From Escherichia coli (GTDB lineage: Bacteria > Pseudomonadota > Gammaproteobacteria > Enterobacterales > Enterobacteriaceae): a stretch of DNA of 64,000 nt. How positions within the stretch are numbered: position 1 is the first letter of the stretch; each line of letters begins with the position of its first letter. Positions 19,887 to 37,715 of the stretch are shown here, piece after piece. Position numbers and translations under genes: made by a program. Where the stretch lies: assembly GCF_003790525.1 (NCBI RefSeq), contig NZ_CP033635.1; one strand, written 5' to 3'. The notes beneath the pieces were generated by a model. That model was given only the letters and a program-made list of their open reading frames with translations, searched no databases and was not told where the DNA came from.

Positions 19887-20172
19887 ACTTTATCTCCGTA
19901 TTCAATAATTGAGTAAAACAATCCCCCGCGCTTATATAAGCGCGTTGATATTTTTAATTATTAACAAGCAACATCATGCTAATACAGACATACAAGGAGA
20001 TCATCTCTCTTTGCCTGTTTTTTATTATTTCAGGAGTGTAAACACATTTTCCGTCTCCCTGGCTAATAACCACATTGGCATTTATGGAGCACATCACAAT
20101 ATTTCAATACCATTAAAGCACTGCATCAAAATGAAACACTGCGATATTAAAATTCTTTCAATTTGAAAAGCA

Positions 20173-22122: not shown

Positions 22123-22500
22123 TCAAGTCATTTTCAGAACTTGTATCAGAATGCTATGCCAGTAAGCTTGATCAAACGCAATAATATCTAGTCTGGATCA
22201 TTACAAAAACAGACCTTATCAACAATGTAACCATACATACATTAGAAAGAATAACCGTTAAAGCAATAAAAAACGAATAATACATTAGATAAATTTTAAA
22301 AATGCCAACAACATCTGAAATCTTTGCGTTTGATATTTATCATTATTCAAACTGAAACAACACAGGCATACGAGTTGTTTCACTGTGAAACAGTGCAGCG
22401 AAATTTGTTCTGCCCTTTTATTTCCTCAAAGATATTTCGTCGTTAAATTCCAAAATTGACTGACTATTCAACTCAGCGTAAATATCAGGAGAAATAATGT

Positions 22501-24240
22501 ATGGCGAGGATGCGTGCAATCGAAGCTGCAGTAGAAATACTGAAAAAAGAAGGCATTAGCGTTGCTTTTGGTGTACCCGGCGCAGCAATCAACCCACTCT
22601 ATGCCGCGATGAAAAAATCAGGCGGTATTGATCATATTCTGGCCCGTCATGTTGAGGGCGCCTCGCATATGGCTGAAGGTTACACCCGCAGTCAGAATGG
22701 CAATATTGGCGTGTGTATTGGCACATCAGGCCCTGCGGGCACTGATATGATTACGGGGCTTTATTCCGCCTCCGCGGATTCCATTCCTATTCTCTGCATT
22801 ACTGGTCAAGCTCCCGTAGGAAAACTTCATAAAGAAGATTTCCAGGCCGTCGATATTGAGGCTATCGCCACGCCAGTAACCAAAATGGCTCGCACAATTC
22901 TCGAAGCGGGTCAGTTGCCGGGGATATTCCAGAAAGCCTTCTGGGAAATGCGTTCAGGCCGCCCTGGCCCGGTTCTTTTAGATCTCCCTTTTGATGTTCA
23001 GATGACCGAAATTGAGTTTGATATCGATCTCTATCAGCCACTAACCCCCTGGCAACCTCAGGCAACACGGGCCCAGGCCGTACGCGCATTAGAAATGCTA
23101 AATGGCGCCGAAAAGCCCGTCATCATCGCTGGCGGTGGCATTATTAACGCCAAAGCGAGTGAATTGTTGCGTGAGTTTGTCGAGTTAACTGGCGTTCCCG
23201 TCATTCAAACCTTACGCGGTTGGGGCGCATTATCAGATGATCATCCCCTAATGATTGGTCGCATGGGATGTCAGGCGGGTCATCGCTATGGTAACGCCAG
23301 TTATCTGGCCTCCGATTTTGTTTTTGGTATCGGTAACCGTTGGGCAAACCGTCATACCGGAGCCATTGAGACCTACACCGAAGGCCGCAAATTCATTCAT
23401 GTTGATATCGAACCTGCACAAATTGGCCGGATATTTGCGCCGGATCTGGGCATTGTTTCTGATGCTGAAAGCGCCTTAACGCTATTTATTCAGGTCGCCC
23501 GTGATATGAAGTCACGTGGAGAACTGAAAGACCGCAGTCGCTGGATTGCCGAATGTGCCGAGCGTAAACGCACAATGCTTCGTCGTTCAGACTTTGACTG
23601 CAATCCAATTAAACCGCAGCGCGTGTATCACGAAATGAATAAGGTTTTCGGACCGGAGACACGCTATATTTCGACAATTGGTCTGGCGCAAATCGCCGCA
23701 AACCAATTTTTACATGTTTACCGCCCACGCCACTGGATTAATGCCTGTCAGGCTGGGCCGCTAGGCTGGACAATGCCCGCAGCACTGGGCGCGGTAAAAG
23801 CTGATCCATCTGTTCCCGTTGTGGCAATATCCGGTGATTACGATTTTCAATTCTTGATTGAAGAATTAGCCGTCGGCGCACAATTTAATCTTCCGTATAT
23901 CCATATTTTACTTAACAACGCTTATCTTGGTTTGATTCGTCAATCACAACGTGCATTTGATATTGATTATTGCGTTCAACTGTCATTTGAAAATATTAAT
24001 GCTCCAGAAATTAATGGTTATGGCGTTGATCATAAAGCTGTGGTTGAAGGATTAGGATGTAAAGCGATTCGCGTATTCGCATCACAGGATATTGCGCCTG
24101 CACTGCAAGAAGCCCAGCGTTTGCGTGACGAATTTCACGTACCTGTTGTTGTGGAAATTATTGCTGAACGCGTGACTAATATCGCTATGGGACCTGACAT
24201 TAATAAAGTCACAGAATTTGAAGAAATTCTCGATTTATAA
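22501..24240 (+). CDS. Glyoxylate carboligase-like ThDP enzyme (Gcl paralog)
   Basis: 579 aa; N-terminus ([41 protein letters not shown]) is near-identical in pattern to Gcl; ATG 22501 lies 10 nt after AGGAG. Confidence 0.8.
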
Positions 24241-24252
24241 GGAAACAGGATT

Positions 24253-25035
24253 ATGGCAAAGTTTGCAGCAAATTTATCTATGCTCTTTACCGAGTATCCA
24301 TTTATTGAACGTTTTGCACAGGCAAGTCACGCAGGATTCCACGGCGTTGAGTATCTTTTCCCCTATGACTTTTCTGCAGATGAGTTGGTTTCGCAACTGC
24401 ATCAACATAATCTGACGCAGGTTCTGTTTAATCTTCCTGCGGGTAACTGGCAAGAGGGTGAACGGGGTATTGCATGTCATCCTGGTCGGGCAAAAGAATT
24501 TCAGGAGAGCGTTTCCAGGGCAATAGAGTATGCATTGGCCCTTAATTGTTCACAAGTTAATTGCCTTGCAGGAAAACATCCAGGTGGTTATTCGCATGAA
24601 CAATGTCATGAAACACTGGTCGAAAATTTGCGCTATGCGGTAGATAAATTGGCTTCTCATGGGATAAAGTTAGTTCTGGAAGCCATTAATACAAAAGATA
24701 TTCCCGGTTTTTTTGTTAACAATACCAGACAAGCTCTCAATATTATTCATGATGTAAAACATCCTGATTTGCGCTACCAATACGATATTTATCATATGCA
24801 AATCATGGAAGGGAATATTGCTACAACAATCAAAAACAACCTGAATAACATTGGACATATTCAATTAGCCGATAACCCTGGGCGTCATGAACCAGGGACG
24901 GGAGAAATTAATTACCCGTGGTTGTTAAATTATATAGACCAGATTGGTTATCAGGGATGGATTGGTTGCGAATATATTCCATCTACGACAACGACTGAAA
25001 GTCTACGCTGGCTAAAAAACGAGACTCAATTTTAA
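24253..25035 (+). CDS. Hydroxypyruvate isomerase-like (Hyi family, TIM-barrel sugar isomerase)
   Basis: 260 aa, directly downstream of the gcl-like gene as in the gcl-hyi-glxR arrangement. Confidence 0.75.
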   Translation: MAKFAANLSMLFTEYPFIERFAQASHAGFHGVEYLFPYDFSADELVSQLHQHNLTQVLFNLPAGNWQEGERGIACHPGRAKEFQESVSRAIEYALALNCSQVNCLAGKHPGGYSHEQCHETLVENLRYAVDKLASHGIKLVLEAINTKDIPGFFVNNTRQALNIIHDVKHPDLRYQYDIYHMQIMEGNIATTIKNNLNNIGHIQLADNPGRHEPGTGEINYPWLLNYIDQIGYQGWIGCEYIPSTTTTESLRWLKNETQF

Positions 25036-25052
25036 TCCCTGAGGTATTTATC

Positions 25053-25940
25053 ATGAATATTGGATTTATCGGCACCGGCATAATGGGTAAGCCGATGGCT
25101 TATAATTTACAACAAGCCGGACATACTCTTTATTTTTCAGCGCATTTTGAACCTGCACCGCAAGAGCTTATTGGTGAACGTGGCATTGTTTGCTCTACAC
25201 CGCGTGAAGTCGCGCAGGAGTGTGAGGTCATCATCACCATGCTCCCTGATACCCCACATGTTGAGGATGTTCTTTTTCATCCCAACTATGGCGTAATACA
25301 CGGTTTAAGCCACGGGAAAATTGTCATTGATATGAGTTCAATTTCCCCGGTTGCCACCAAAGCATTTGCACAACGTATTATCGCGGGAGGCGCGGAATAT
25401 ATCGATGCGCCCGTCTCTGGCGGTGAAGTTGGCGCGAAAGCCGGGACGCTTTCCATTATGGTTGGCGGATGTGAAGAGGTTTATTTACAGATCAAACCGA
25501 TTCTGGAATTGATGGGTAAAAATATCACTCTGGTCGGGAACGTCGGTGATGGTCAAACGTGCAAAGTCGCTAACCAAATTATTGTTGCACTGAATATTGA
25601 AGCGGTGGCTGAAGCCCTGCTCTTTGCCAGTAAATCAGGTGCCGATCCCGCCCGCGTACGTGAAGCTCTGATGGGGGGTTTTGCTTCCTCTCGTGTATTG
25701 GAAGTTCATGGCGAACGGATGATCAAAGGGACATTCGCCCCTGGTTTTCGAATTAGCCTGCATCAAAAAGATCTGAATCTGGCACTGGAGAATGCTCGCC
25801 TGTTGAATACCCCGCTTCCTAACACGGCTATGACGCAACAATTATTTAGCGCCTGCGCCGCGCTCGGTGGTAAAGAGTGGGATCATTCTGCGTTAATTCG
25901 GGCGCTTGAAACACAAGCCAATTTCACTATCCGTAAATAA
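25053..25940 (+). CDS. Tartronate semialdehyde reductase-like (beta-hydroxyacid dehydrogenase family)
   Basis: 295 aa; N-terminal NAD-binding GFIGTGIMG; third gene of the gcl-like operon. Confidence 0.8.
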   Translation: MNIGFIGTGIMGKPMAYNLQQAGHTLYFSAHFEPAPQELIGERGIVCSTPREVAQECEVIITMLPDTPHVEDVLFHPNYGVIHGLSHGKIVIDMSSISPVATKAFAQRIIAGGAEYIDAPVSGGEVGAKAGTLSIMVGGCEEVYLQIKPILELMGKNITLVGNVGDGQTCKVANQIIVALNIEAVAEALLFASKSGADPARVREALMGGFASSRVLEVHGERMIKGTFAPGFRISLHQKDLNLALENARLLNTPLPNTAMTQQLFSACAALGGKEWDHSALIRALETQANFTIRK

Positions 25941-26014
25941 TGAATTAAGGGAACCACCGGTTCCCTTCGTTCACTCGTTGCCCTGCCCCATTCCCCTATT
26001 TTGAGAGACCTGCT

Positions 26015-27157
26015 ATGAAGATAGTTATCTCCCCCGACTCCTTTAAAGAATGCCTTCCCGCATGGAAAGTCGCCGAAGCGCTGGCAACCGGCTGGCGCAA
26101 GGTCCTGCCTGGCAGCCAACTGGTGTGTTTGCCCGTGGCTGACGGCGGCGAAGGCACGCTCGAAACACTCATTCATGCGACTGACGGTACGTTTTACACT
26201 AAAAAAGTCACCGGACCGCTTGGCGAATCAATACATGCGCAATACGGTATTTTAGGCAACCAAACCACCGCAGTGATAGAACTGGCACAAGCTTCAGGGC
26301 TGGAACTGGTTTCTCCTGTCCAGCGTTCTCCCCTTTATACGACGTCGTTTGGCACTGGCGAACTTATTCTCGCCGCCCTGGAACACAATATTGATACCGT
26401 TATTCTATGCCTGGGTGGCAGTGCTACAAATGATGGCGGTATTGGGTTGATGTCGGCACTTGGCGCATCGTTTACAGACGCCGAAGGGCTATCAGTCTCT
26501 GTTAATGGGATGGGGCTGGCGGCAATTCACCACATTGACTTACAGCACCTCGATCCACGATTGAAAAATGTGAAATTTATTGCAGCCTGTGATGTCACCA
26601 ACCCACTAACCGGCGATAACGGCGCGACTCGGGTTTTTGCTCAACAAAAAGGGGCCAGTGCTGACAACCTTGAGCAACTGGAACAGGGAATGAAAAACTA
26701 TGCCCGTTGCATCTACCGTTGTTGTGGTAAAGAAGTCGATACGATACCCGGTTCTGGGGCGGCTGGCGGCGTTGGCGCGGCCTTGATGGCTTTTCTCGAT
26801 GCTCGCTTACAACCGGGTATTTCGCTCGTGCTGGAAGCGATTCAATATACCCAACATTTAAAATATGCAGCATTGGCGATTGTCGGTGAAGGTAAATTAG
26901 ACCGTCAAAGCCTGAATGGCAAAGCACCTGTGGGGGCGGCCAAAATCGCCCAGATGATGGGCGTTCCGGTTATCGCAATTGCCGGGTATATCGATGATCA
27001 ACTTGATTTGAATGAGTTACGCCAGTGTGGAATCGAAGCCTGTTTTTCCGTCGTCAATGGTCCTTGTGATTTACCCACCGCGCTGAGTCAGGGGGAAAAT
27101 AATTTAATTCGTCTCGGAGAAAATTTGGCAGGGTATTTTCATGCAGTCCTGAGTTAA
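26015..27157 (+). CDS. Glycerate kinase (GlxK/GarK family)
   Basis: 380 aa; starts MKIVISPDSFKE, typical of the glycerate kinase family. Confidence 0.8.
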   Translation: MKIVISPDSFKECLPAWKVAEALATGWRKVLPGSQLVCLPVADGGEGTLETLIHATDGTFYTKKVTGPLGESIHAQYGILGNQTTAVIELAQASGLELVSPVQRSPLYTTSFGTGELILAALEHNIDTVILCLGGSATNDGGIGLMSALGASFTDAEGLSVSVNGMGLAAIHHIDLQHLDPRLKNVKFIAACDVTNPLTGDNGATRVFAQQKGASADNLEQLEQGMKNYARCIYRCCGKEVDTIPGSGAAGGVGAALMAFLDARLQPGISLVLEAIQYTQHLKYAALAIVGEGKLDRQSLNGKAPVGAAKIAQMMGVPVIAIAGYIDDQLDLNELRQCGIEACFSVVNGPCDLPTALSQGENNLIRLGENLAGYFHAVLS

Positions 27158-27212
27158 TTCCCGTTCGGTAAAATGCCCGATAATGCAAATTACCGGGCAT
27201 TCCTGAACATCA

Positions 27213-28754
27213 TTATTCATCTCTCGCGGTTTTCTCTTCAGCCGCAAGCTGTGTCAAAAAACTCTTCAATAAAATAAACACTACGCCGCAAAGCGGTAGT
27301 CCGGCCAGGATAGAGACCGTTTGTAGCGGTTGCAGACTTTGCGCATCAAGAAGATAGAGTGTGATTGCGACGATTCCGGTCATAATCAACCAAAATGCCA
27401 CGTTCCAGAATGCCGGTTCACTCTCACTATCTGCCCGTTTTTGCGTCGCAAAACCGAGGGCATAACCCACAGTACAGTGTCCGGTAATATATGAAATTAA
27501 TGCTATAGCCCCAAAAGCAACCAAAAACACCTGACTTGCGGGTAGCTGCTCCAGTAAACGAGAAACGACAACGCCTCGCCCTTGTTCGTTAAGTATGGGA
27601 ACAAAATCGATGACATGAGTTGTCTGCAACGATAAGCCGAAATTAGCCAGTACCATGTAAAAAACCATGCATCCCAATGAACCTGCCAGAGTTCCACATA
27701 CAATCAATTGCCGGATCGTCCTTCCTTTTGAAATACGGGCGATAAATAAACCGAATGGGATGGCATACACGACCCACCATGAAAAATAAAATACGGTCCA
27801 CATCTGTGGAAATCCGCTACGACCAATAGCATCGGTACTTAAACTCATCGCTACAAAATTTTGCAGCATCAGGCCGAAACCATCAATTGATTGGTTAAGT
27901 ATAAAAGCTGTCGGTCCACAAATCAGTATTGCCAGTAGCATAAAAATATCGGCACGAATATTCCAGTTACTGGCCCATGCCACACCTTTTTTAAGTCCAA
28001 AAAAGAGAATTAATAATGGCACTAGCGTCCAGATAAAAATAACCATGACATTGATAAACTGCCCGGCAGGATCCAGATGGAACACATGGCAAAATACGGC
28101 AGAAATCATCGGCGTTCCCAGCGCCAGAGACGTTACCGCGCCGCCGAGCAAACCAAACATGTAGAAAAAATTCACACAATGCCCGCAAAAACCATCAGCA
28201 CGTGCCCCCAGACACCCACGGCATAAATCACTGACCTTTAATGAGTTCGTTTTCTTAACATGCATAAACCAACCAATGGGAACGGCACAAATCAGATACC
28301 ATGCCCATGCGGACGGCCCCCAATGGAACATGCCATAAGCAGAGGCCCAACGAGCAGCCTGAGCGCTTCCTGCTGTCGCGCCAAAAGGCGGTTGCTGAAT
28401 GATCCAAATCCACTCTACAGAGGCCAGATATAACAAGCTGCCCCCCGTTCCAGAAGTAAAAATAAGTCCAAGCCAGGTTAACAAGCTGAAGTCAGGCTTT
28501 TCTCCCGACTGACCTAACAAGATATCGCCATAACGTGAGAAGGCCAGCCACAGACAACAAAGTACAACCAGAAAAGTCATGACCAGAAAAATCCCGCCCA
28601 TTTCCCAGGTTAAAAAATGATGTATTTTATTTATATACCGGCTGGTATCTTGTGGATATATCGTCAAACACAGAATGATTACCGCAATAAATAATATTGC
28701 TGGGATAAACACATTCAGTTCAATCAAAGAAAAGCGTTTTTTTAAATATTGCAT
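27213..28754 (-). CDS. BCCT-family transporter (betaine/carnitine/choline type)
   Basis: 513 aa from ATG 28754 (AGGAG upstream); contains the BCCT signature-like stretch WTVFYFSWWVVYAIPFGLFIARISKGRTIRQ. Confidence 0.7.
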   Translation of the reverse strand: MQYLKKRFSLIELNVFIPAILFIAVIILCLTIYPQDTSRYINKIHHFLTWEMGGIFLVMTFLVVLCCLWLAFSRYGDILLGQSGEKPDFSLLTWLGLIFTSGTGGSLLYLASVEWIWIIQQPPFGATAGSAQAARWASAYGMFHWGPSAWAWYLICAVPIGWFMHVKKTNSLKVSDLCRGCLGARADGFCGHCVNFFYMFGLLGGAVTSLALGTPMISAVFCHVFHLDPAGQFINVMVIFIWTLVPLLILFFGLKKGVAWASNWNIRADIFMLLAILICGPTAFILNQSIDGFGLMLQNFVAMSLSTDAIGRSGFPQMWTVFYFSWWVVYAIPFGLFIARISKGRTIRQLIVCGTLAGSLGCMVFYMVLANFGLSLQTTHVIDFVPILNEQGRGVVVSRLLEQLPASQVFLVAFGAIALISYITGHCTVGYALGFATQKRADSESEPAFWNVAFWLIMTGIVAITLYLLDAQSLQPLQTVSILAGLPLCGVVFILLKSFLTQLAAEEKTARDE

Positions 28755-28777
28755 TTCAGTCTCCTGAATGTTTTCAT

Positions 28778-29002
28778 TCAATGAGGACGAATATTTCGCC
28801 GTTCCTTTTTCATGTGTTGCAATTGTCGGGAAAGGCGTAAAGAAAAAAAGGCGCAAATAAGTGAAAGTACCGCAATACAATACAGAGCTAAACCACACTG
28901 ATGCTGTTGCAGCATGAACAGGAATATCCCCAAAAAGAGGCCGCAGAGAACTGTGGTTATCCAGTAATTGGCACTTAAGTGCTCCAGGTCATCATCCCTC
29001 AT
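28778..29002 (-). CDS. Small two-span membrane protein upstream of the BCCT transporter
   Basis: 74 aa from ATG 29002, with AGGAG 7 nt upstream; two hydrophobic segments; 23 nt upstream of the BCCT start on the same strand. Confidence 0.35.
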   Translation of the reverse strand: MRDDDLEHLSANYWITTVLCGLFLGIFLFMLQQHQCGLALYCIAVLSLICAFFSLRLSRQLQHMKKERRNIRPH

Positions 29003-29054
29003 GGTCTTTCTCCTGCAAGGCGCAGAGAGGCTTTCAGCTCTCTGCGCCTTGTTG

Positions 29055-30419
29055 TTATGCCAGACGTACGCCCTGCTGTTGCAGCGTGTTTTGCAAATCA
29101 GGAATAGCAACCTGACGCACGGTGCAATGTTGCTGTAGCGAAACCACGGCGGCAGTGCCTGCGGCCTCACCGGTAACGGCACAACACATCATGTTGCGCA
29201 TAGAAGTATGTGCAACTACGCCTGCGGAAATACAGCGACCGGCGACCAAAAGGTTCTCCACTTTTTGTGGCACCAGACAGCCATAGGGGATCTGAAAGAA
29301 ACGCCCGGTCGTTGGCAAAATGAGATAACCGGAACCATCAATAAATTCCGGGAAAATCCCTACACTGTCCGAACAACGCCCCTGATTAAGGACGTAATCA
29401 TCAGCAATACGTATTTCCCCCTCAATAAGCCGTGATTCGCGTGTACCCAGCGTGGCGCCAAAATTGCGTAACCGTACATTTTCAAAGCCCGGAACATAAT
29501 GGCGTAGAGCGTCAATTGCCCATAATGCTTGCTGCCTTCCGGCGATTTCTGCTTTGGTTAAATCGAAGACATCGGTACAGTCAAAACCAAAGGCGTACAC
29601 CATATTCATCTGAAACGCTTCGCCGCTTTCAGAAAAGGTTGACCAGGTTCCGGCAATCGCCTGGGCGTCGCCTGGAATCACACCATCCTGCTGCGCCCGG
29701 GTAAAAATATCCTCCATATAAGGGCTAAACATCTGGTCTTCTTTGCCCGTGGTTTGAATCGTCCAGTTTTTTCCCCAATCCGCGTAGGTCGGCTTAAGTT
29801 CTTCCGCAACAAAACGGTTAAAGCGCGCCACATCGACACCTGCGCAACTGAACATCACGGTGACGCCCATCAGTTGGTCCTTTCCCCGTTTCGTCCAGGG
29901 CGCGCCTGCACGAGCAGCAATATCAGCATCCCCCGTGCAATCGACGATTCTTTTCGCCAGAATTGCCCCTCGTCCTGATTTGTTCTCGACAATAACACCG
30001 CATAACGTATCCCCTTCCTTGATCACATCCACAACCCAGGAGTGATATAACGGCTCAACGCCAGCTTCCGTTATCATCTGATCGGCAACAACTTTAAATC
30101 CTTCAGTATCTATAACTTCGCTAATTGACTGAGGTTCTGGTCGCGTGAAGCCCAATGCTCGCGCGCGGCCTTCATATTCACGACAAATCCCTTCACAATC
30201 TTCCGTCCCCGGATGGCGATACCAGGCAAAACTTTCCACACCAACCTGCGTCAATACGCCGCCTAGTGAGCCGTAACGCTCAACAATCATGGTTCTGGCA
30301 CCTAGCCGCCCCGCCGCTATCGCCGCCGTTAATCCTGCCGGACCGCCCCCGATAACCAGAACGTCCGTTTGTGCAATGACTGGCGTTTGCCGTGCACTTT
30401 CATTAATCATGTCCACCAT
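29055..30419 (-). CDS. FAD-dependent oxidoreductase (paralog 2)
   Basis: Start chosen at ATG 30419 (GGGGGAA upstream); the track ORF starts at TTG 30449, overlapping the upstream MFS gene; VLVIGGGPAGLTAAIAAGRLGARTMIVERYGSLGG fold; paralog of 18516-19886. Confidence 0.7.
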   Translation of the reverse strand: MVDMINESARQTPVIAQTDVLVIGGGPAGLTAAIAAGRLGARTMIVERYGSLGGVLTQVGVESFAWYRHPGTEDCEGICREYEGRARALGFTRPEPQSISEVIDTEGFKVVADQMITEAGVEPLYHSWVVDVIKEGDTLCGVIVENKSGRGAILAKRIVDCTGDADIAARAGAPWTKRGKDQLMGVTVMFSCAGVDVARFNRFVAEELKPTYADWGKNWTIQTTGKEDQMFSPYMEDIFTRAQQDGVIPGDAQAIAGTWSTFSESGEAFQMNMVYAFGFDCTDVFDLTKAEIAGRQQALWAIDALRHYVPGFENVRLRNFGATLGTRESRLIEGEIRIADDYVLNQGRCSDSVGIFPEFIDGSGYLILPTTGRFFQIPYGCLVPQKVENLLVAGRCISAGVVAHTSMRNMMCCAVTGEAAGTAAVVSLQQHCTVRQVAIPDLQNTLQQQGVRLA

Positions 30420-30436
30420 TGGTTCCCCCATCAGAT

Positions 30437-31705
30437 TCAGGATGCGCAATCCGCATTGTTTTCAGTGATTTCATTGACTTGATTTTTACTTTTACGATTC
30501 ACACGCTGGAGGACCAGTGCGGCGATAAGGCCGATGAATGCGCAAACCAACATGAACAGGAAAACATCCTGATAACCGGCAATACCCGGTTTGCGGTCGA
30601 CCATATTGCCCACCATCGTGTAGCAGTAGATTTCCGGGAAATAGGTCAGTAAAGAGATCAGACCCGCAGCAGTCCCTGTGACTTTTGCCGGGATCCGAAT
30701 CTCATCAATAATTGAGAAGAACACGGCATTCGCAGAGTAAATAAACACGCCCAACGCAACCATATTCGCCAGCGCAATAGTGACGTAGCGCGACTCACCG
30801 GGCAGGAAGAAATAAACGGTAGTAAAGACAATCATGCCGATAAAGGCGTAAATCATAAAACGCGTGCGTGACGCACAGCGGTCGGCCAGTTGTCCGCCAA
30901 TTAATCCCCCCATCGCAAATAACACATAGGCGCGAAGAATACTGGCAACTGCCACTTCCGATTCGCCCATATGCAGGATCTGCGTGAGATACGGCGTGAC
31001 CATGCCAAAGCCGATATAAATTGACCACATACAAAAGGTCACAACACCTGCCAGCCAAACCGTCGGCATTTTCAGCACGAATGCCATATCTGCCAGACGG
31101 AAATTCGCTTTATCTTCGCTGTGCGTTTCATCCTGACAAACAAACCAGGCTAAAACACCGGCCAGAATAGTCACTACGGAATAAAAAATAATTGTCGCCC
31201 GTAAACCATCAACACCTTCGCCAAATTTGGCAAATACCGGCACGGAAAGAAATCCCAGTACAATGGAGGTTAATCCCTTACCCAGAAACCAGTAACCGTA
31301 TAAGCGACCTTGTTCTTCGCTGGTTCCCAGGGTACGAATAATTCGCACACACACGGCCCAAAACGTAAATACGGTTGTAACAGCCCAAAGTGCATGTAAC
31401 AAACAGATCATAGTATACGAGGGGAAGGTCGCATAATAAAAACCACTTATCCCGGTGGAAATTAATGAAAAGGTCATTAATTTACGTGCAGAAAATCTAT
31501 CGGCAGCCCAACCGCCAGGTAGATATAATAAAAAGTTCACCAGACCATAGGCTGTCATTAGAAAACCAAGTTCAGCATTAGTCGCTCCTGTAGCCTGCTG
31601 CATCGCGTCGTAATAGGTTTCCCGTAAATAAGGCAATTTATATATTGCACTTCCGGCAATACCACATAACGCCAGCGTGATCCAACGTTTCCAGTTACTG
31701 GTCAT
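30437..31705 (-). CDS. MFS transporter
   Basis: 422 aa, 12-span hydrophobic profile; immediately upstream of FAD oxidoreductase paralog 2 on the same strand. Confidence 0.75.
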   Translation of the reverse strand: MTSNWKRWITLALCGIAGSAIYKLPYLRETYYDAMQQATGATNAELGFLMTAYGLVNFLLYLPGGWAADRFSARKLMTFSLISTGISGFYYATFPSYTMICLLHALWAVTTVFTFWAVCVRIIRTLGTSEEQGRLYGYWFLGKGLTSIVLGFLSVPVFAKFGEGVDGLRATIIFYSVVTILAGVLAWFVCQDETHSEDKANFRLADMAFVLKMPTVWLAGVVTFCMWSIYIGFGMVTPYLTQILHMGESEVAVASILRAYVLFAMGGLIGGQLADRCASRTRFMIYAFIGMIVFTTVYFFLPGESRYVTIALANMVALGVFIYSANAVFFSIIDEIRIPAKVTGTAAGLISLLTYFPEIYCYTMVGNMVDRKPGIAGYQDVFLFMLVCAFIGLIAALVLQRVNRKSKNQVNEITENNADCAS

Positions 31706-31772
31706 ATTTATTCCCGAATGAAGTATTTAAAATGACACCAACGGCCTGCTTTGCACAGGCCGTATTATTTTT

Positions 31773-32855
31773 TTAAAGTCCCAAATGATGTGCAGTTAAA
31801 ATTGCGCAAAGAACGTCCTGCGCTGTTACTACGAATGGCATATTATGGATAGTTTCCCCTTCAGCAGTCGCTGCTTCAGCCACTGCCCGTAATTTATCTT
31901 TATTAATTTCCTTCACGCCTAACATATGAAGATTTGTCGGCAGACCAACGCTATGGCAGAAATTGAGTACGGTTTCAATTTCCTCCTGTGGTGCGTTTTC
32001 CAGTACGAGCTGTACCAGGACGCCAAATGCCACTTTTTCACCGTGGTAGCAATGATGGCATTCCTCCAGTTGCGTCATGCCGTTATGAATGGCATGAGCT
32101 GCCGCCAGGCCGCTACTTTCAAATCCAATGCCGCTAAGATAGGTATTAGCTTCGATAATATTCTCTACCGCTTTGGTGCTAACACCTTGTTCAACCGCGA
32201 CTTTTGCCTTATAGCCATCTTCCAGTAGCGTGGTATAACAGAGTCGGGCAATAGCCAGTGCCGCCAGTGTCGACGCCCCACCTGCCATTGTGGCTTTTCC
32301 TGACGCCTGATTGGCTCTCGCCTCAAACCAGGTTGACAATGCATCTCCCATACCGGCCACCAGCAGACGCACTGGCGCGGCTGAAATGACGCCAGTATCC
32401 ATAATCACCATATCCGGGTTTTTCGGGAAAAACAGATATTCGCTAAACTGGCCTTCCGGGGTGTAAATTACTGCCAGAGAACTGGTTGGCGCATCTGTGG
32501 AAGCAATTGTCGGCACCACCACTACCGGAATTTTTTGGTAATACGCTACGGCTTTTGCCGTATCCAACGTTTTACCGCCGCCAATACCAATAACGACATT
32601 ATATTTACGCTGATTAAATTTCTCACGAATTCGAGAAATTTCATTTTGCGAGCATTCACCGCAAAAAACATCAAGATCCGCAATAATGTTTTCTCTTGCA
32701 AAGCTCTGGCTTACTCTGTCACCAACCAGACCGGTCACAAATTCATCTGCAATAATTAATGGTTCTGTTCCCAAACTCGCCGCATATGTAGCAATATTAT
32801 CCAGAGAACCATTTCCCTGGATATATTTAGCCGGACTTATAATAATCTTATCCAT
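31773..32855 (-). CDS. Glycerol dehydrogenase-like (iron-containing alcohol dehydrogenase family, GldA paralog)
   Basis: 360 aa; GIGGGKTLDTAKA and GFESSGLAAAHAIHNG motifs as in GldA. Confidence 0.8.
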   Translation of the reverse strand: MDKIIISPAKYIQGNGSLDNIATYAASLGTEPLIIADEFVTGLVGDRVSQSFARENIIADLDVFCGECSQNEISRIREKFNQRKYNVVIGIGGGKTLDTAKAVAYYQKIPVVVVPTIASTDAPTSSLAVIYTPEGQFSEYLFFPKNPDMVIMDTGVISAAPVRLLVAGMGDALSTWFEARANQASGKATMAGGASTLAALAIARLCYTTLLEDGYKAKVAVEQGVSTKAVENIIEANTYLSGIGFESSGLAAAHAIHNGMTQLEECHHCYHGEKVAFGVLVQLVLENAPQEEIETVLNFCHSVGLPTNLHMLGVKEINKDKLRAVAEAATAEGETIHNMPFVVTAQDVLCAILTAHHLGL

Positions 32856-33174
32856 ATCATTCCTCGCGTAACTTGTTTTGCTTCACTGTTAACCTACTCG
32901 TTGCATCCAGTGGCGGCAAACATTTCATTCGCGAAAAATTATGTTTTATGATCGCGCTGTAAAAAACATCATCTGCAGATGATAATAAAAAACACTTTTC
33001 ATGCCTTAATCACAATATATCAATATCCATACTGGTCCCTTTTCATTTTGAAACAACACCATGAATTAACTGTTTCATTATGAATCTTATTATCGTGCGA
33101 TTTGTTTTATTGCGGTTGGAGAATTAATCTCGCAAACATATTTAGCGCGATTTACGTAATTTATCAGAACAGGA

Positions 33175-34245
33175 ATGACTATGAAGAAATTAATTAACCA
33201 GATTGATTCTGTTGTCACAGAACAAATGGAAGGACTCATCGCCACCTGGCCACACCTGCAGGCAAATTACGCGCCCCGATATGTGTGGTGCAAACAAACC
33301 GATAATGCAGTGGCGCTGATTTCAGGCGGCGGCTCAGGCCATGAACCACTGCATGCAGGTTTTGTCGGTATGGGAATGTTAACCGGTGCATGTCCTGGTG
33401 AAATCTTCACATCGCCCACGCCAGATCAAATGATCGAATGTGCCAAAGCGGTTGATAATGGTTCTGGCGTTCTGTTTTTCATCAAAAATTACACAGGCGA
33501 TATTCTGAATTTCGAAACGGCAGTCGAGATGTTACACGAAGAAGGCATCGCCGTTGGGACCGTCATTATTGATGATGATGTAGCGGTAAAAGATAGCCTG
33601 TATACAGCCGGACGTCGCGGTGTTGCGGGTACAGTTTTTGTTGAAAAGATTGTCGGTGCGGCTGCACTTCAGGGATATAACCTGGGGCAGTGCGAGCAAC
33701 TTGGCAAAGATGTTAACAATGCCACCCGTTCTTTTGGCATCGCACTGTCAGCCTGTACGGTTCCCGCCGCGGGAAAACCCTCATTTGAACTGGCTGATAA
33801 TGAAATCGAATTTGGTGTCGGGATCCACGGTGAACCCGGCATTGAACGCCGCACTTTGCAAGATCTGAACACTTTAATCGACAGCGTGATAGCGCAATTA
33901 CTGGATAATACCCCCTGGCGACGCACATTACGCCATTGGGATCGCCATGCGGGGGGATGGATTGACGCATCATCAATGAATGAGTCATTCGATCAAAATG
34001 CCGAATATATTGTGTTAATTAACGGACTTGGCAGCACGCCTGAATCAGAGTTATATGGTGTGGCCAGGGTATTTATGTGCGCCGCACAGCGCCAGGGAAT
34101 TAAAATTAGCCGCCAGTTGGTCGGTAATTATTGTACATCATTAGATATGGCCGGATTTTCCATCAGCCTGCTGAAATGTACCCCAGAGTTTTTGCAACTT
34201 TGGGATGCCCCGGTCAATACGCCAGCGCTTCGTTGGGGATGTTAA
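33175..34245 (+). CDS. Dihydroxyacetone kinase subunit DhaK (paralog)
   Basis: 356 aa; extensive match to recalled E. coli DhaK (LISGGGSGHEP, GEIFTSPTPD, IKNYTGDILNFETA, VIDDDVAVKDSLYTAGRRGVA). Confidence 0.85.
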   Translation: MTMKKLINQIDSVVTEQMEGLIATWPHLQANYAPRYVWCKQTDNAVALISGGGSGHEPLHAGFVGMGMLTGACPGEIFTSPTPDQMIECAKAVDNGSGVLFFIKNYTGDILNFETAVEMLHEEGIAVGTVIIDDDVAVKDSLYTAGRRGVAGTVFVEKIVGAAALQGYNLGQCEQLGKDVNNATRSFGIALSACTVPAAGKPSFELADNEIEFGVGIHGEPGIERRTLQDLNTLIDSVIAQLLDNTPWRRTLRHWDRHAGGWIDASSMNESFDQNAEYIVLINGLGSTPESELYGVARVFMCAAQRQGIKISRQLVGNYCTSLDMAGFSISLLKCTPEFLQLWDAPVNTPALRWGC

Positions 34246-34257
34246 TAAGGACATTAT

Positions 34258-34890
34258 ATGAAAATTCAAAACAAACATGTTATTGCCTGGCTGGAGAGTT
34301 GTGCTGCACATCTCACTGAACAACAAGATTTTCTAACCGCACTTGACAGAGATATTGGTGATGCCGACCACGGCCTCAATATGAATCGTGGTTTCAGTGC
34401 AGTGAAAGCGACGTTGCCCGACATTGAACGTCAGCATATTGGCAATATTCTTAAAAATACTGGCATGAAACTACTTTCCAGCGTTGGCGGTGCCAGTGGT
34501 CCTCTTTACGGCACATTATTTATTCGCGCTTCTGCGGCAGTGGGAGCCAGAACAGAATTAACTCTGGAAGAGTGGCTGGCGTGTCTGGAAGAAGGGATTG
34601 CAGGCGTTATCGCACGAGGAAAAGCAGAACAAGGGGATAAAACACTGTGTGATGTCTGGGTTCCAGTTCTCCACGAAGCCAAAAAGAACCTGCAAGCCGG
34701 AATGTCGCCTTCCCTTCTGCTGAATACGATGGTGCAAGATGCGGCAACAGCAGTCGATAACACCATCAATATGCAGGCGAAAAAAGGACGTGCCAGTTAT
34801 CTCGGCGCTCGCAGTGTGGGCCATCAGGATCCAGGCGCGACCTCCTCCTGGCTGATGATTAAGGCTATGCAGGAAGGATTCGCGGGATAA
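34258..34890 (+). CDS. Dihydroxyacetone kinase ADP-binding subunit DhaL (paralog)
   Basis: 210 aa; LDREIGDADHGLNMNRGF and SSVGGASGPLYGT motifs as in DhaL. Confidence 0.85.
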   Translation: MKIQNKHVIAWLESCAAHLTEQQDFLTALDRDIGDADHGLNMNRGFSAVKATLPDIERQHIGNILKNTGMKLLSSVGGASGPLYGTLFIRASAAVGARTELTLEEWLACLEEGIAGVIARGKAEQGDKTLCDVWVPVLHEAKKNLQAGMSPSLLLNTMVQDAATAVDNTINMQAKKGRASYLGARSVGHQDPGATSSWLMIKAMQEGFAG

Positions 34891-34893
34891 ATT

Positions 34894-37275
34894 ATGGTTG
34901 CCATTGTTATTGTTTCTCATAGTCTACGTCTCGCCCAGGGGGTTGAGGAATTAGCACTACAGATGTCTGGAGGGGACGTTCCTCTGGCCATTGCTGCAGG
35001 TATTGATGATCCGCAAAATCCGATTGGCACTGATGCTATTGCCATTATGTCTGCGATTGAATCGGTCTGGTCACCGGATGGCGTTCTGGTACTCATGGAT
35101 ATGGGCAGTGCGCTGCTTAGTACCGAGATGGCGCTGGAGCTGCTTTCTGAAGAGCAAAGAAGTGCAATTTATCTGCTCGCCGCCCCTGTAGTGGAAGGTG
35201 CCATGTCAGCGGTAACGTCTGCCGCAGCGGGGCTTTCGGTGACGGAGATTATCGCTGAAGTGGATCTTGCGCTGTGTGCTAAACAGCAGCAACTCACGCC
35301 ATCCTCAACTGCAGGCGAGGTTATTCCAGCAATATCACCAATCAATCATTCCGGTGAATGGCAAACTTTTTGCTGGACGATACGTAATCCCCACGGCATT
35401 CATGCTCGTCCGGCAGCCAGCATCCTGAAAGTATCCGCACAATATTCGGCAAACATTATCGTCATCAAAGGCGATAAACGCGCCAGCACCCGCAGTCTCA
35501 ACGAACTGGCAATGCTGGGCGTCCGCTGTGGCGATGAAATCATCTTCCAGGCCGAAGGCACCGATGCCAGTGACGCTCTCAAGGCAATTGAAACGTTGGC
35601 GAAAAATCATTTTGGTGAAGCTCACCTGCTCGCTTCTTCAGAGATTCCGCTAACGGAAACGCCGGTGGTCAGCGCCCCTGTCGATGGCGCAATATCAGGC
35701 TTGTCAGTACAAAATGGTATCGCTATTGGTCCTGTTAAATGGTTTACCTGCGAACGACCAGAAATTACGCAGCGCACCGTCGATTCTCCGCAAGAAGAGC
35801 TGTCGCGAATCGAGTCTGCTATCGACATTGTTGTTTGTGAACTTGCCGATAAAGCGGCAGGCCCTGAAGGCGATATTTTTGCCGCCCATAAAATGATGCT
35901 TGAAGATCCAAAGATTAACCGGCAATTACAGCAACGTCTGGCAAAGGGCAAACAGGCGGAATTCGCATGGTTAGAAGTCATGCAGGCATTAGCAGAGCAA
36001 TATTGTCAGGCGGAAACACTGTATTTACGTGAACGCGAGGCAGATATCCGTGACCTTACACGTCAGGTACTGAACCAGCTTTGCGGGGGAAGTGAACAAC
36101 ACTTTATTACTACCGCGCCCTGCATTTTGTTAGCCAACGATCTGTTGCCATCACAGATAACCAGCCTGAATAAAGCACACATTCTTGGCATTTGTCTTCA
36201 TAATGGCGGAACAACTTCACATACAGCGATCCTTGCCAGAGCAATGGGTATTCCTGCCATTGTGAAGGCAGCTATTACCCCGCAAAACGTCCGCGATAAC
36301 GACACGGTCATTCTTGATGGTGAAACAGGCCGTTTGTGGCTACAGCCGGATGAGGTCACCCGCCTGGATTTACTGCAACGCGCCGAAGCATGGCGGCAAC
36401 AAAGGGATCGTCAGTTAGCTGATGCCATGCAGCCCGCTGTCACGCAAGGTGGGCGAAAAATCAGCGTGCTGGCGAATATTGGTGACCTGCAAGATATTGA
36501 GGCTGCGCTATCTCACGGGGCTGAGGGCGTGGGTTTACTGCGCACAGAGTTTTTATTCCATGAGTCTGCAACATTACCCGATGAAGAAGAGCAGTTTCGC
36601 GTGTATTGTTCTGTTGCTCAGGCTTTTGGCGATAAACCAGTCACCATCCGCACTCTGGATATTGGCGGTGACAAGCCATTACCTTCGTACCCTTTACCCG
36701 CAGAGGACAACCCGTTCCTGGGACTTCGCGGTATCCGGTTGTGCCTGGCGCATCCGCAAATATTTATTCCGCAATTACGCGCACTTCTCCGGGCCGGGAA
36801 AGAATACCCAACGCTGCAAATTATGCTGCCGATGGTTTCAACGCTCGAGGAGGTCAACGCCGTCAAAACGCTGATACAAACGCAGGCAAAACTGCTGGGA
36901 CTTACTGCAGAAAATCTTCCGGCGCTGGGAATTATGATTGAGGTTCCTGCTGCAGTCATGATTGCAGAAAAATTAGCCAGTGAAGTCGATTTCTTTTCCA
37001 TCGGCACCAACGATCTGACGCAATATATTATGGCGGCAGACAGAGGAAATAGCACCGTCGCGGAACTGGTCGATTATCGTAATGACGCGGTGATTAACGC
37101 TATTGCTATGGTGTGTCAGGCCGGACGTAATAATGAAATTCCGGTCAGTATGTGCGGCGAAATGGCTGGAGATACCCAGCAAACAGCACGACTGCTCACC
37201 ATGGGGATTGATAAGCTCAGTGCCAGTCCGTCCCGGCTTCCGGCCTTGAAAGCAGCAATCAGAACCTCCCACTAA
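34894..37275 (+). CDS. DhaM-like multiphosphoryl transfer protein: EIIA(Man-like) + HPr-like + complete Enzyme I
   Basis: 793 aa; N-terminus MVAIVIVSHS ... AAGIDDPQNPIGTDA matches DhaM; HPr-like segment with GIHARPAA; EI phosphohistidine region GGTTSHTAILARAMGIPAIV and C-terminal PEP-utilising region ending FFSIGTNDLTQY. Confidence 0.85.
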   Translation: MVAIVIVSHSLRLAQGVEELALQMSGGDVPLAIAAGIDDPQNPIGTDAIAIMSAIESVWSPDGVLVLMDMGSALLSTEMALELLSEEQRSAIYLLAAPVVEGAMSAVTSAAAGLSVTEIIAEVDLALCAKQQQLTPSSTAGEVIPAISPINHSGEWQTFCWTIRNPHGIHARPAASILKVSAQYSANIIVIKGDKRASTRSLNELAMLGVRCGDEIIFQAEGTDASDALKAIETLAKNHFGEAHLLASSEIPLTETPVVSAPVDGAISGLSVQNGIAIGPVKWFTCERPEITQRTVDSPQEELSRIESAIDIVVCELADKAAGPEGDIFAAHKMMLEDPKINRQLQQRLAKGKQAEFAWLEVMQALAEQYCQAETLYLREREADIRDLTRQVLNQLCGGSEQHFITTAPCILLANDLLPSQITSLNKAHILGICLHNGGTTSHTAILARAMGIPAIVKAAITPQNVRDNDTVILDGETGRLWLQPDEVTRLDLLQRAEAWRQQRDRQLADAMQPAVTQGGRKISVLANIGDLQDIEAALSHGAEGVGLLRTEFLFHESATLPDEEEQFRVYCSVAQAFGDKPVTIRTLDIGGDKPLPSYPLPAEDNPFLGLRGIRLCLAHPQIFIPQLRALLRAGKEYPTLQIMLPMVSTLEEVNAVKTLIQTQAKLLGLTAENLPALGIMIEVPAAVMIAEKLASEVDFFSIGTNDLTQYIMAADRGNSTVAELVDYRNDAVINAIAMVCQAGRNNEIPVSMCGEMAGDTQQTARLLTMGIDKLSASPSRLPALKAAIRTSH

Positions 37276-37285
37276 TTGTGACCTA

Positions 37286-37312
37286 ACGCGATACGTCTTG
37301 CGCGTATCGCGT
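37286..37312. terminator. Bidirectional stem-loop between the dhaM-like gene and iraD
   Basis: ACGCGATACG ... CGTATCGCGT perfect 10 bp inverted repeat followed by TT. Confidence 0.5.
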
Positions 37313-37322
37313 TTCCCGTCAT

Positions 37323-37715
37323 TTACTGCGGCATCGTGCGATGCCAACTCCCCTTCTGCCAGACCAGATCAAACGTTAGCGGTTCATCGTCGTGGTACAG
37401 CATTATCTCAAGGCTGATCGCCAGCGTGTGGCAGTACGCTTCTTTCAAATTGACCTGCAACGCCGCAATCCGTGGCTCATGAAATAACAGTGCAGAACGC
37501 AGCTGACGGCAATACCAGCTCTGAAGATGTTTGTCGCTCTGGTTATGCAGTTGCCACTCGGGCATGCCTGAAACAAGTAATGACGGTAATGCCGAATGAG
37601 GAGAATTAAAAAGTGTGAGGAGATCGCTGCATACCGATTTACGCAGCGATGACGTTTTATTGCCTGAAATTTCAGGTAAAACAGCCTGAAGTGATTGGCG
37701 CATCATTTTGCGCAC
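37323..37715 (-). CDS. iraD: Anti-adaptor protein IraD (YjiD)
   Basis: 130 aa; sequence matches recalled IraD; followed by a long AT-rich upstream region shared with divergent yjiC. Confidence 0.75.

Follow-up and report, generated by a model that had tools for sequence, protein, structure and literature searches.

The IIA-Man(DhaM)-HPr-Enzyme I protein PtnI and a second set of DHA kinase genes on the GimA island of Escherichia coli

The locus and its genes

The stretch of DNA considered here (hereafter the window, to which all position numbers refer unless stated otherwise) comprises 64,000 nucleotides of contig NZ_CP033635.1 from the E. coli assembly GCF_003790525.1, and it includes the genomic island GimA, which in published passages on the island is placed between yjiD and yjiE and divided into the operons ptnIPKC, cglDTEC, gcxKRCI and ibeRAT (PMC2878320). 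The GC content of the island is 0.40–0.51, as against 0.54–0.55 in its flanks. The first GimA gene, adjoining yjiD/iraD, is ptnI/pptE, which the ORF listing and translation give as a single intact ATG-to-stop reading frame of 2,382 bp encoding 793 aa (residues 697–711 of the translation include VDFFSIGTNDLTQY). The ORF matches the annotation of E. coli SMS-3-5 at 100%; it is the SMS-3-5 allele of the same gene that is found in GimA of E. coli K1 RS218, APEC O1 and UTI89, and the copies in UTI89 and IHE3034 have 99.3% nucleotide identity to it. Knowledge of ptnI/pptE as a GimA gene goes back to 2001 (Huang et al. 2001), and a later paper gives both its length of 2,382 bp and a pair of pptE probe primers (Homeier et al. 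2010, PMC2878320); these primers match the window at 36934–36953 (one mismatch) and 37255–37275 (none), spanning 342 bp. In passages on GimA, that paper uses ptnI/pptE chiefly as a marker for the island, without going into its domain architecture. In RefSeq the protein is WP_000225796.1 and carries the gene symbol ‘ptsP’, which is misleading in that it conceals a protein of DhaM type that would act as donor to a second DHA kinase.

The two genes directly upstream encode the other subunits of such a kinase, with gaps of only 12 bp (dhaK–dhaL) and 3 bp (dhaL–ptnI). The island DhaK is 59% identical to K-12 DhaK and keeps the motifs GGGSGHEP, NYTGD and GVGIHGEPG, while the island DhaL is 55% identical to its K-12 counterpart and keeps DxxIGDADHG. 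Upstream again, and divergent, lies a glycerol dehydrogenase gene (GimA2 cglD), the product of which would make DHA from glycerol; in Vibrio parahaemolyticus, too, this Fe-ADH gene lies divergently upstream of the dhaK-dhaL-fusion genes, and in Pseudovibrio an Fe-ADH gene lies downstream of the fusion gene. A scan for promoters and terminators over 32700–37500 returned 6 promoter-like sites where 7.3 would be expected, and 1 terminator-like site where 5.0 would be expected. Table 1 collects the coordinates.

Table 1 Positions in the window of GimA, its flanking genes, the DHA kinase genes and the domains of PtnI.
Feature	Position	Strand	Basis
hypT/yjiE, island flank	16100–17011		
GimA genomic island, ~20.3 kb	17012..37322	.	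annotation, published description, GC
ibeR, DhaR-family regulator	20173..22107	-	annotated as DhaR
Glycerol dehydrogenase (GimA2 cglD), divergent	31773..32855	-	NF006941 556 bits
Island dhaK, DHA-binding subunit	33175..34245 (RefSeq start 33181)	+	TIGR02363 460 bits > 406
Island dhaL, ADP-binding subunit, predicted phosphoryl acceptor from H9	34258..34890	+	TIGR02365 248 > 138
ptnI/pptE, 793-aa IIA-Man(DhaM)-HPr-Enzyme I multiphosphoryl transfer protein (MTP)	34894..37275	+	ORF, domains, annotation, primers
DhaM / EIIA-Man-like domain, aa 4–118	34903..35247	+	Pfam PF03610 4e-23; TIGR02364 above cutoff
HPr-like domain, aa 159–237	35368..35604	+	Pfam PF00381 PTS-HPr, 7e-21
Enzyme I N-terminal part, aa 267–484	35692..36345	+	PF05524, PF00391; PtsI/DhaM alignments
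Enzyme I C-terminal PEP-binding (beta/alpha)8 domain, aa 510–791	36421..37266	+	Pfam PF02896 4.5e-100
iraD/yjiD, island flank	37323–37706		

Domains, active-site residues and the C-terminal end of PtnI

The original prediction was of a DhaM-like protein carrying a complete Enzyme I (EI), and the Pfam matches bear this out, placing five domains in the order EIIA-Man/DhaM, HPr, EI N-terminal, mobile His and full PEP-binding, so that every domain it had named for annotation was found. Two broader NCBIfam models agree from either end of the protein, TIGR02364 (dha_pts) scoring 119.7 bits against a cutoff of 98.25, and TIGR01417 (PTS_I_fam) 460.6 against 341.7. In the first domain H9 (codon 34918–34920) aligns to the phospho-histidine H9 of K-12 DhaM, and in the HPr-like domain residue mapping makes H170 (codon 35401–35403) and R172 the equivalents of H15 and R17 of HPr, the residue equivalent to S46 also being kept. 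The N-terminal part of EI consists of a helical HPr-binding subdomain (PEP-utilisers_N, PF05524, at aa 269–381, 1e-20) and a mobile His domain (PF00391 at 408–479, 6e-20), within which H443 (codon 36220–36222) corresponds to H189 of PtsI. In the C-terminal domain (EIC), where the match to PEP-utilizers_C (PF02896) spans model positions 7–290 of 293, C754 (codon 37153–37155) corresponds to C502 of PtsI, and the residues of the PEP/Mg2+ site (R550, R586, K594, E683, N706, D707 and R717) are all kept.

These residues are conserved well beyond the Escherichia proteins. In a set of 63 homologs having 33–67% overall identity to PtnI, H9, H170, R172, H443, D589, E683 and D707 are invariant (63/63), and R550, R586, K594, N706, R717 and C754 are kept in 61–62; near-invariance of the active-site residues at such levels of overall identity indicates purifying selection across the whole relay. 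The catalytic His and Cys and the PEP ligands, the loss of which would have told against the original prediction, are thus both present and conserved throughout the family, and, since the barrel is also complete (see below), the idea that the EI part is degenerate, or a pseudo-EI, can be rejected.

The AlphaFold (AF2) model of PtnI has a pLDDT of 91.4, with disorder confined to the linkers 136–153 and 249–252, and in it the EIC barrel is complete, having eight strands and a final helix. The EIC part of the model fits the solved EIC structures 2xz7, 2bg5 and 6vu0 with rmsd values of 1.5–1.6 Å (1.6 Å for the PEP-bound EIC of 2xz7), full-length EI structures ranking highest among the matches; a sequence search of the PDB likewise gave full-length EI as the best match (E=9e-101, over PtnI residues 267–792). 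Where the original prediction needs qualifying is at the very end of the chain: the PEP-utilising domain is there, with a complete predicted barrel, but the C-terminus of PtnI falls at about residue 541 of PtsI, and the final ~34 residues of PtsI (542–575) are missing. About two thirds of PtnI's family keep a C-terminal tail of 25–50 aa, which has to be counted against the reading of PtnI as a functional phosphoryl donor; that the missing tail represents a truncation can nevertheless largely be rejected, as the tail-less form is common to homologs from several genera (Escherichia, [Enterobacter] lignolyticus, Serratia, Vibrio and Pseudovibrio).

Relation to named phosphotransfer proteins

K-12 DhaM (YcgC, b1198; 472 aa), which partners with DhaK, DhaL and a DhaR-type regulator, resembles PtnI in having HPr-like and EI N-terminal domains, and its phospho-histidines H9, H169 and H430 correspond to H9, H170 and H443 of PtnI. 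It aligns only to PtnI residues 1–484, however, with 38% identity (62% between the DhaM domains), and it ends at residue 472, just past the His domain and without a PEP-binding domain, in keeping with the statement in the original prediction that canonical DhaM ends in a truncated EI N-domain. This lack makes K-12 DhaM reliant on PtsI and HPr. PtnI reaches 309 residues past the end of this alignment, and K-12 PtsI aligns to its residues 267–793 with 38% identity (48% for EIC, but only 26% for the helical subdomain of the EI N-terminal part, EIN); taken together, the two alignments show that PtnI continues through the PEP-binding domain. PtsI shares with PtnI both EIN and EIC, the active-site His and Cys and the PEP/Mg ligands, but it is a separate protein of ~575 aa that serves as a general enzyme, has a tail (542–575) and carries no fused HPr or IIA domains.

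None of the narrower family models fits. Canonical DhaM (the NF008478 equivalog) can be set aside on score (421.4 bits, below the cutoff of 520) and on length (793 aa as against ~472), and general Enzyme I PtsI (NF008382) on score (395.7 against 824), on the fused N-terminal domains and on the lack of the tail. PtsP or EI-Ntr, as the RefSeq symbol would have it, is rejected because Pfam finds no GAF domain, such as is fused N-terminally to EI in that family, and the corresponding model (NF008283) scores 398.2 against a cutoff of 583 with a match limited to model positions 170–705. What does fit, in domains, residues and adjacency to dhaK and dhaL alike, is the class of IIA-Man/HPr/EI MTPs, for which Vibrio parahaemolyticus, Photobacterium profundum and Desulfovibrio vulgaris have been given as examples, and which have been described as ‘invariably associated’ with DHA kinase genes (Comas et al. 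2008, PMC2405797). Known members have the same five-domain order, catalytic residues and dhaK-dhaL-MTP gene order as PtnI, which differs from them in that it is encoded on a mobile island and its host possesses dhaKLM already, and in belonging to a subgroup without the C-terminal tail. The FruB-type IIA-Fru/HPr/EI proteins (as in Rhodobacter capsulatus) and the E. coli HPr-EI-IIA-Fru proteins PtsA and FryA likewise put a IIA domain together with EI and HPr on a single chain that serves one pathway, but they have a different IIA family, sometimes in a different order, and form separate phylogenetic groups (PMC2405797); moreover they serve sugar transporters, whereas the class of PtnI serves a soluble kinase.

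The full-length architecture is widespread. Most of the best 150 representatives (50% clustering) align to PtnI from end to end, and both the five domains and the gene order dhaK-dhaL-fusion recur in V. parahaemolyticus (52% identity to PtnI, end to end), in Pseudovibrio FO-BEG1 and in a metagenomic homolog that is 34% identical; a five-domain protein is present in Serratia as well. Given that YcgC/DhaM has been held to derive by evolution from EI-containing proteins (Comas et al. 2008, PMC2405797), the full-length IIA-Man/HPr/EI form is probably ancestral and K-12 DhaM a reduced derivative of it. The original prediction had treated the full-length form as the departure, and this framing has to be inverted: it is the widespread form, and K-12 DhaM is the one that has been cut down. 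Both the gene and its architecture were thus already known, the one as an ExPEC/NMEC island gene, the other as a class catalogued in comparative PTS studies; a search of the accessible literature found no experiments on what ptnI/pptE does, nor on any other protein of IIA-Man/HPr/EI type.

The predicted relay and its possible roles

The domain order, catalytic residues, conservation and fold of PtnI and the dhaK-dhaL-MTP gene order having been established above, it is very probable from the sequence that ptnI/pptE encodes a functional MTP, acting as the phosphoryl donor of a second, horizontally acquired PTS-type DHA kinase on GimA. With all the relay residues present and dhaK and dhaL adjoining, a relay from PEP to DhaL is the straightforward reading at the level of sequence, and it agrees with PMC2405797; a self-contained path PEP→His443→His170→His9→DhaL·ADP→DHA, needing three island proteins, is accordingly a well supported prediction. 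The C-terminal (beta/alpha)8 domain would bind PEP and Mg2+ and phosphorylate His443 on the mobile EI His domain, from which the phosphoryl group would reach first, either within one chain or within a dimer, His170 in the HPr part of the fusion, next His9 in the DhaM (IIA-Man-like) domain at the N-terminus, and then the ADP that DhaL holds permanently; DhaL·ATP would finally phosphorylate DHA bound to DhaK, this DHA being the product of the neighbouring glycerol dehydrogenase. How each transfer proceeds, in direction and chemistry, and independence from the PtsI and HPr of the host, would follow from what is established for E. coli DhaKLM and EI, activity without separate EI and HPr being the mechanism long assumed for this large family; that the island kinase is also insulated from the state of the general PTS is speculation. 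It should be added that the island set is not the strain's only DHA kinase, a possibility that was considered and rejected: SMS-3-5 also carries canonical dhaR-dhaKLM (at 1,960,779–1,966,068 in that genome) together with PtsI and HPr, which counts against the proposal, and the canonical dha operon is present in 5385 of 5426 complete E. coli genomes.

The reading that most obviously competes accepts the relay but not its insulation: the fused EI and HPr might exchange phosphoryl groups with free HPr, PtsI and other EI paralogs, in which case the island kinase would still report the global PTS state. Jointly these two propositions are a real, if doubtful, possibility. The canonical residues of the HPr-like domain (equivalent to H15, R17 and S46) and the presence of the HPr-binding EIN helical subdomain speak for cross-talk, and K-12 DhaM, a relative, takes phosphate from free HPr, as Gutknecht reportedly found in 2001 (cited in PMC2405797); against this, the helical subdomain is far from that of PtsI (see the identity given above), the HPr domain is distant from PtsH, and fusion favours intramolecular transfer. 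A different kind of objection is that the relay may be right and the pathway label wrong, the substrate being glyceraldehyde, for instance, or some other short ketose or aldose that the dehydrogenase and FAD-oxidoreductases of the island would make. Some kinases of the Dak family do act on other small carbonyl compounds, the identity of the island DhaK to that of K-12 is no more than moderate, and the island has additional oxidoreductases and transporters; but DhaK and DhaL both score above their equivalog cutoffs (Table 1) with active-site motifs kept, and with a glycerol dehydrogenase adjacent a substrate other than DHA seems very unlikely.

It is also conceivable, though on balance unlikely, that the module is mainly regulatory, island DhaK and DhaL·ADP controlling IbeR, and thereby the GimA genes including ibeA, while the fused EI sets DhaL phosphorylation from PEP. 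In K-12, DhaK and DhaL act on DhaR. IbeR is a full-length DhaR homolog that is nearer to the regulator beside the V. parahaemolyticus dhaK-dhaL-fusion operon (45% identity) than to K-12 DhaR (33%), which suggests a co-inherited kinase–regulator unit and makes IbeR the probable cognate regulator of the island dha module; the apparent co-inheritance in turn suggests that sensing of glycerol or DHA may be tied to the control of the GimA genes. Carbon-source-regulated invasion is reported in the title of the first paper on GimA (cited in PMC12928451). Weighing the other way, ibeR lies ~11 kb from the dha operon with other operons between, and in K-12 regulation and catalysis are compatible. A more elaborate version, which must be judged quite unlikely, would see in the GimA dha module not a redundant catabolic enzyme but a sensor of metabolism that works independently of the PTS, gating the GimA genes (among them the invasion and oxidative-stress gene ibeA) through binding of DhaK and DhaL to IbeR. 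As the donor subunit would draw directly on PEP, phosphorylation of island DhaL would then reflect nothing but the PEP pool and the supply of DHA or glycerol, and, were this true, host-derived glycerol or DHA would be linked to ExPEC virulence traits independently of glucose-PTS status.

Lastly, ptnI might be thought a relic that has no function in E. coli and is decaying as part of a shrinking island. GimA remnants have been described and reductive evolution proposed (Homeier et al., PMC2878320), and of the 511 genomes with any match to the ORF 267 keep only a 3' remnant, its last ~371–374 bp; together these suggest that the module may be only weakly selected for in E. coli. That the intact gene is a relic is nonetheless extremely unlikely, given that its catalytic residues are intact, that it is present as a full-length annotated CDS in 244 complete E. 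coli genomes at 96.6–100% nucleotide identity, and that PtnI has orthologs with 90–92% identity in E. albertii and E. marmotae.

Domain architecture and catalytic residues

The original prediction took the product of this gene for a DhaM-like protein that continues through a complete Enzyme I (EI), including the PEP-utilising C-terminal domain, and this is borne out. The gene is a single ATG-to-stop ORF whose translation contains the C-terminal motif quoted in that prediction, FFSIGTNDLTQY; Pfam finds the expected EIIA-man, HPr and PEP-utilizers N and C domains among five arranged in N- to C-terminal order, and the protein passes the curated NCBIfam cutoffs for both the PTS Enzyme I family (TIGR01417; 460.6 vs 341.7) and the DhaM domain model (TIGR02364; 119.7 vs 98.25). 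It fails the whole-protein equivalogs for K-12 DhaM (421 < 520), PtsP (398 < 583) and PtsI (396 < 824).

Features of the fusion protein and its locus (positions in the window, or in the protein where marked aa)
Feature	Position	Strand	Remarks
ibeA	18516-19886	-
ibeR	20173-22107	-	DhaR-family regulator
Second FAD-dependent oxidoreductase	29055-30449	-
Island dhaK	33175-34245		operon with dhaL and fusion gene
Island dhaL	34258-34890		operon with dhaK and fusion gene
Fusion gene	34894..37275	+	793 aa
EIIA-man domain	aa 4-118		Pfam
PTS-HPr domain	aa 159-237		Pfam
PEP-utilisers_N domain	aa 269-381		Pfam
PEP-utilizers mobile His domain	aa 408-479		Pfam
PEP-utilizers_C domain	aa 510-791		Pfam, model positions 7-290 of 293, E=4.5e-100
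3' remnant in other genomes	~36902-37275		last ~371-374 bp
Site of missing C-terminal tail	~37240-37275		C-terminus of fusion protein

K-12 DhaM (472 aa) is indeed the shorter protein, its alignment covering fusion residues 1-484 (38% identity) and then ending, while that of K-12 PtsI covers residues 267-793 (38%) and leaves the last ~34 residues of PtsI with no counterpart; within single domains, identity is 62% to DhaM for IIA-Man and 48% to PtsI for the PEP-binding domain. When catalytic residues are mapped from the K-12 proteins, DhaM H9 falls on H9, DhaM H169 and HPr H15 on H170, HPr R17 on R172, and DhaM H430 and PtsI H189 on H443, while the PEP site of PtsI (R296, R332, D335, K340, E431, N454, D455, R465 and C502) corresponds to R550, R586, D589, K594, E683, N706, D707, R717 and C754. 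In a 63-sequence alignment, made up of the protein itself and 62 homologs 33-67% identical to it, no variation occurs at H9, H170, R172, H443, D589, E683 or D707, and the remaining mapped residues are kept in 61-62; the EI Cys and His residues and the PEP-binding domain, on which the prediction hinged, are all present and conserved.

An AlphaFold2 model built from the same alignment has a mean pLDDT of 91.4, with disorder limited to two inter-domain linkers (136-153 and 249-252). Its C-terminal domain, which has eight beta strands and ends in a helix, superposes at 1.5-1.6 Å on experimental EI C-domain structures, the PEP complex 2xz7 among them, and the best overall structure matches are full-length EI structures, in agreement with the sequence search. 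The structural interpretation is supported to the extent that sequence and a predicted fold allow.

The GimA island and its occurrence in E. coli

Sequence comparison gives a 100% match of the region to E. coli SMS-3-5 (NC_010498.1). The operon runs dhaK, dhaL, fusion gene, with gaps of 12 bp and 3 bp, and a glycerol dehydrogenase gene is divergent from it. (For dhaK the longest ORF gives an ATG at 33175, while the RefSeq start at 33181, MKKLIN..., coincides in alignment with the first residue of DhaK from K-12 and Vibrio.) Further genes are an MFS transporter, an FAD oxidoreductase, a BCCT transporter, glycerate kinase, 2-hydroxy-3-oxopropionate reductase, hyi, gcl, the DhaR-family regulator, ibeA and nhaC; the block is bordered by iraD (yjiD) and hypT (yjiE), and it is poorer in GC (0.40-0.51) than the left flank (0.54-0.55). 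According to Homeier et al. (2010, PMC2878320), GimA lies between yjiD and yjiE and carries the operons ptnIPKC, cglDTEC, gcxKRCI and ibeRAT, and pptE (ptnI), the first gene of GimA1, is 2,382 bp long, exactly the length of the fusion ORF. Their pptE probe primers map to 36934-36953 (one mismatch) and 37255-37275 (none), 342 bp apart as published. The block is the GimA island, and the fusion gene is the known ptnI/pptE. Within GimA, IbeA and the second FAD-dependent oxidoreductase, which occupies the 'cglE' position of GimA2, are paralogs, 51% identical over their full length.

The name ptsP normally denotes the GAF-containing EI-Ntr. RefSeq/PGAP nevertheless gives this symbol to the fusion gene (WP_000225796.1; ECSMS35_RS24410 in NC_010498.1), whose product passes the generic EI model but not the K-12 DhaM equivalog; the symbol hides its tie to DHA (dihydroxyacetone) kinase, and correcting it is among the most useful outputs of this work.

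The full-length gene occurs in 244 of 5,426 complete E. coli genomes (96.6-100% nucleotide identity), UTI89, IHE3034 and NC101 among them. A further 267, such as CFT073, carry only a 3' remnant, adjoining iraD and annotated 'putative PEP-binding protein', which is the 'GimA remnant' described by Homeier et al. (PMC2878320) as having its own ATG and stop. Canonical dhaKLM is present in 5,385 of the 5,426 genomes and also in SMS-3-5 (1,960,779-1,966,068; DhaM of 472 aa), so that the island set is a second, xenologous system, its DhaK sharing 59% and its DhaL 55% identity with their K-12 counterparts, active-site motifs kept. Compared with K-12, SMS-3-5 carries a large chromosomal inversion (NC_010498.1, 1.29-2.06 Mb, outside the window), the order being reversed from che/flh (~1.29 Mb) through canonical dhaKLM (~1.96 Mb) to the fab cluster (~2.05 Mb).

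Relatives of the fusion protein

A word-indexed search found five-domain relatives in E. marmotae (92%), E. albertii (90%), [Enterobacter] lignolyticus (67%), Citrobacter (58%), Serratia (54%) and many Vibrio and Photobacterium (about 50-52%), and also in Moritella, Pseudovibrio and a Rhodobacteraceae bacterium, with 1,853 sequences in the V. parahaemolyticus cluster alone. Against a library clustered at 50% identity, the alignment spans the full length (query 1-790; 34-50% identity) for most of the 150 top-ranked representatives, implying well over a hundred distinct clusters. Dak1 (dhaK) and Dak2 (dhaL) directly precede the fusion gene in V. parahaemolyticus, in Pseudovibrio sp. FO-BEG1 and in a 34%-identical metagenomic homolog, and in Vibrio a divergent Fe-ADH gene and a DhaR-type regulator lie beside the operon. 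The protein belongs to a widespread and already known class of multiphosphoryl transfer proteins (Comas et al. 2008, PMC2405797). The original framing, in which the fusion departs from canonical DhaM, is accordingly to be reversed: the full-length form is the common and probably the ancestral one, and K-12 DhaM is probably reduced.

About two thirds of the homologs in the 63-sequence alignment keep a C-terminal tail of 25-50 residues, comparable to PtsI 542-575. Truncation of this particular copy is largely discounted as the reason for its absence here, because no such tail is present in the whole subgroup of Escherichia, [Enterobacter] lignolyticus, Serratia, Vibrio and Pseudovibrio; tail absence is a clade trait.

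Proposed phosphoryl relay and possible regulation

On the established mechanisms of E. coli DhaKLM and EI (summarised in PMC6643234; Gutknecht 2001, as cited in PMC2405797), the C-terminal domain would use PEP to phosphorylate H443, from which the phosphoryl group would be handed on via H170, H9 and the ADP held by DhaL to DHA bound by DhaK. The present analysis shows the order of the domains, the catalytic residues and their conservation, the predicted fold and a conserved operon context; the linkers seen in alignment and model, flexible and 40 and 29 residues long, would allow transfer within one chain or within a dimer. Independence from host PtsI and HPr is predicted as a natural consequence of the fusion architecture. 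A literature search found no biochemical test of any IIA-Man/HPr/EI family member, and the apparent lack of any biochemical demonstration of self-sufficiency is one of the most useful points to emerge. The further proposal that the pathway is insulated from the global PTS state is speculative, cross-talk of the fusion protein with free HPr being a live alternative to it.

IbeR is only 33% identical to K-12 DhaR, but shares 45% identity with the DhaR-like protein encoded alongside the V. parahaemolyticus operon (8478-10403 of that locus), and island DhaK is likewise closer to its Vibrio counterpart (64%) than to that of K-12 (59%). These sequence relationships suggest joint inheritance of IbeR and the kinase module as one unit, a lead that also ranks among the most useful outputs, and by analogy with K-12 DhaR, island DhaK and DhaL may control IbeR.
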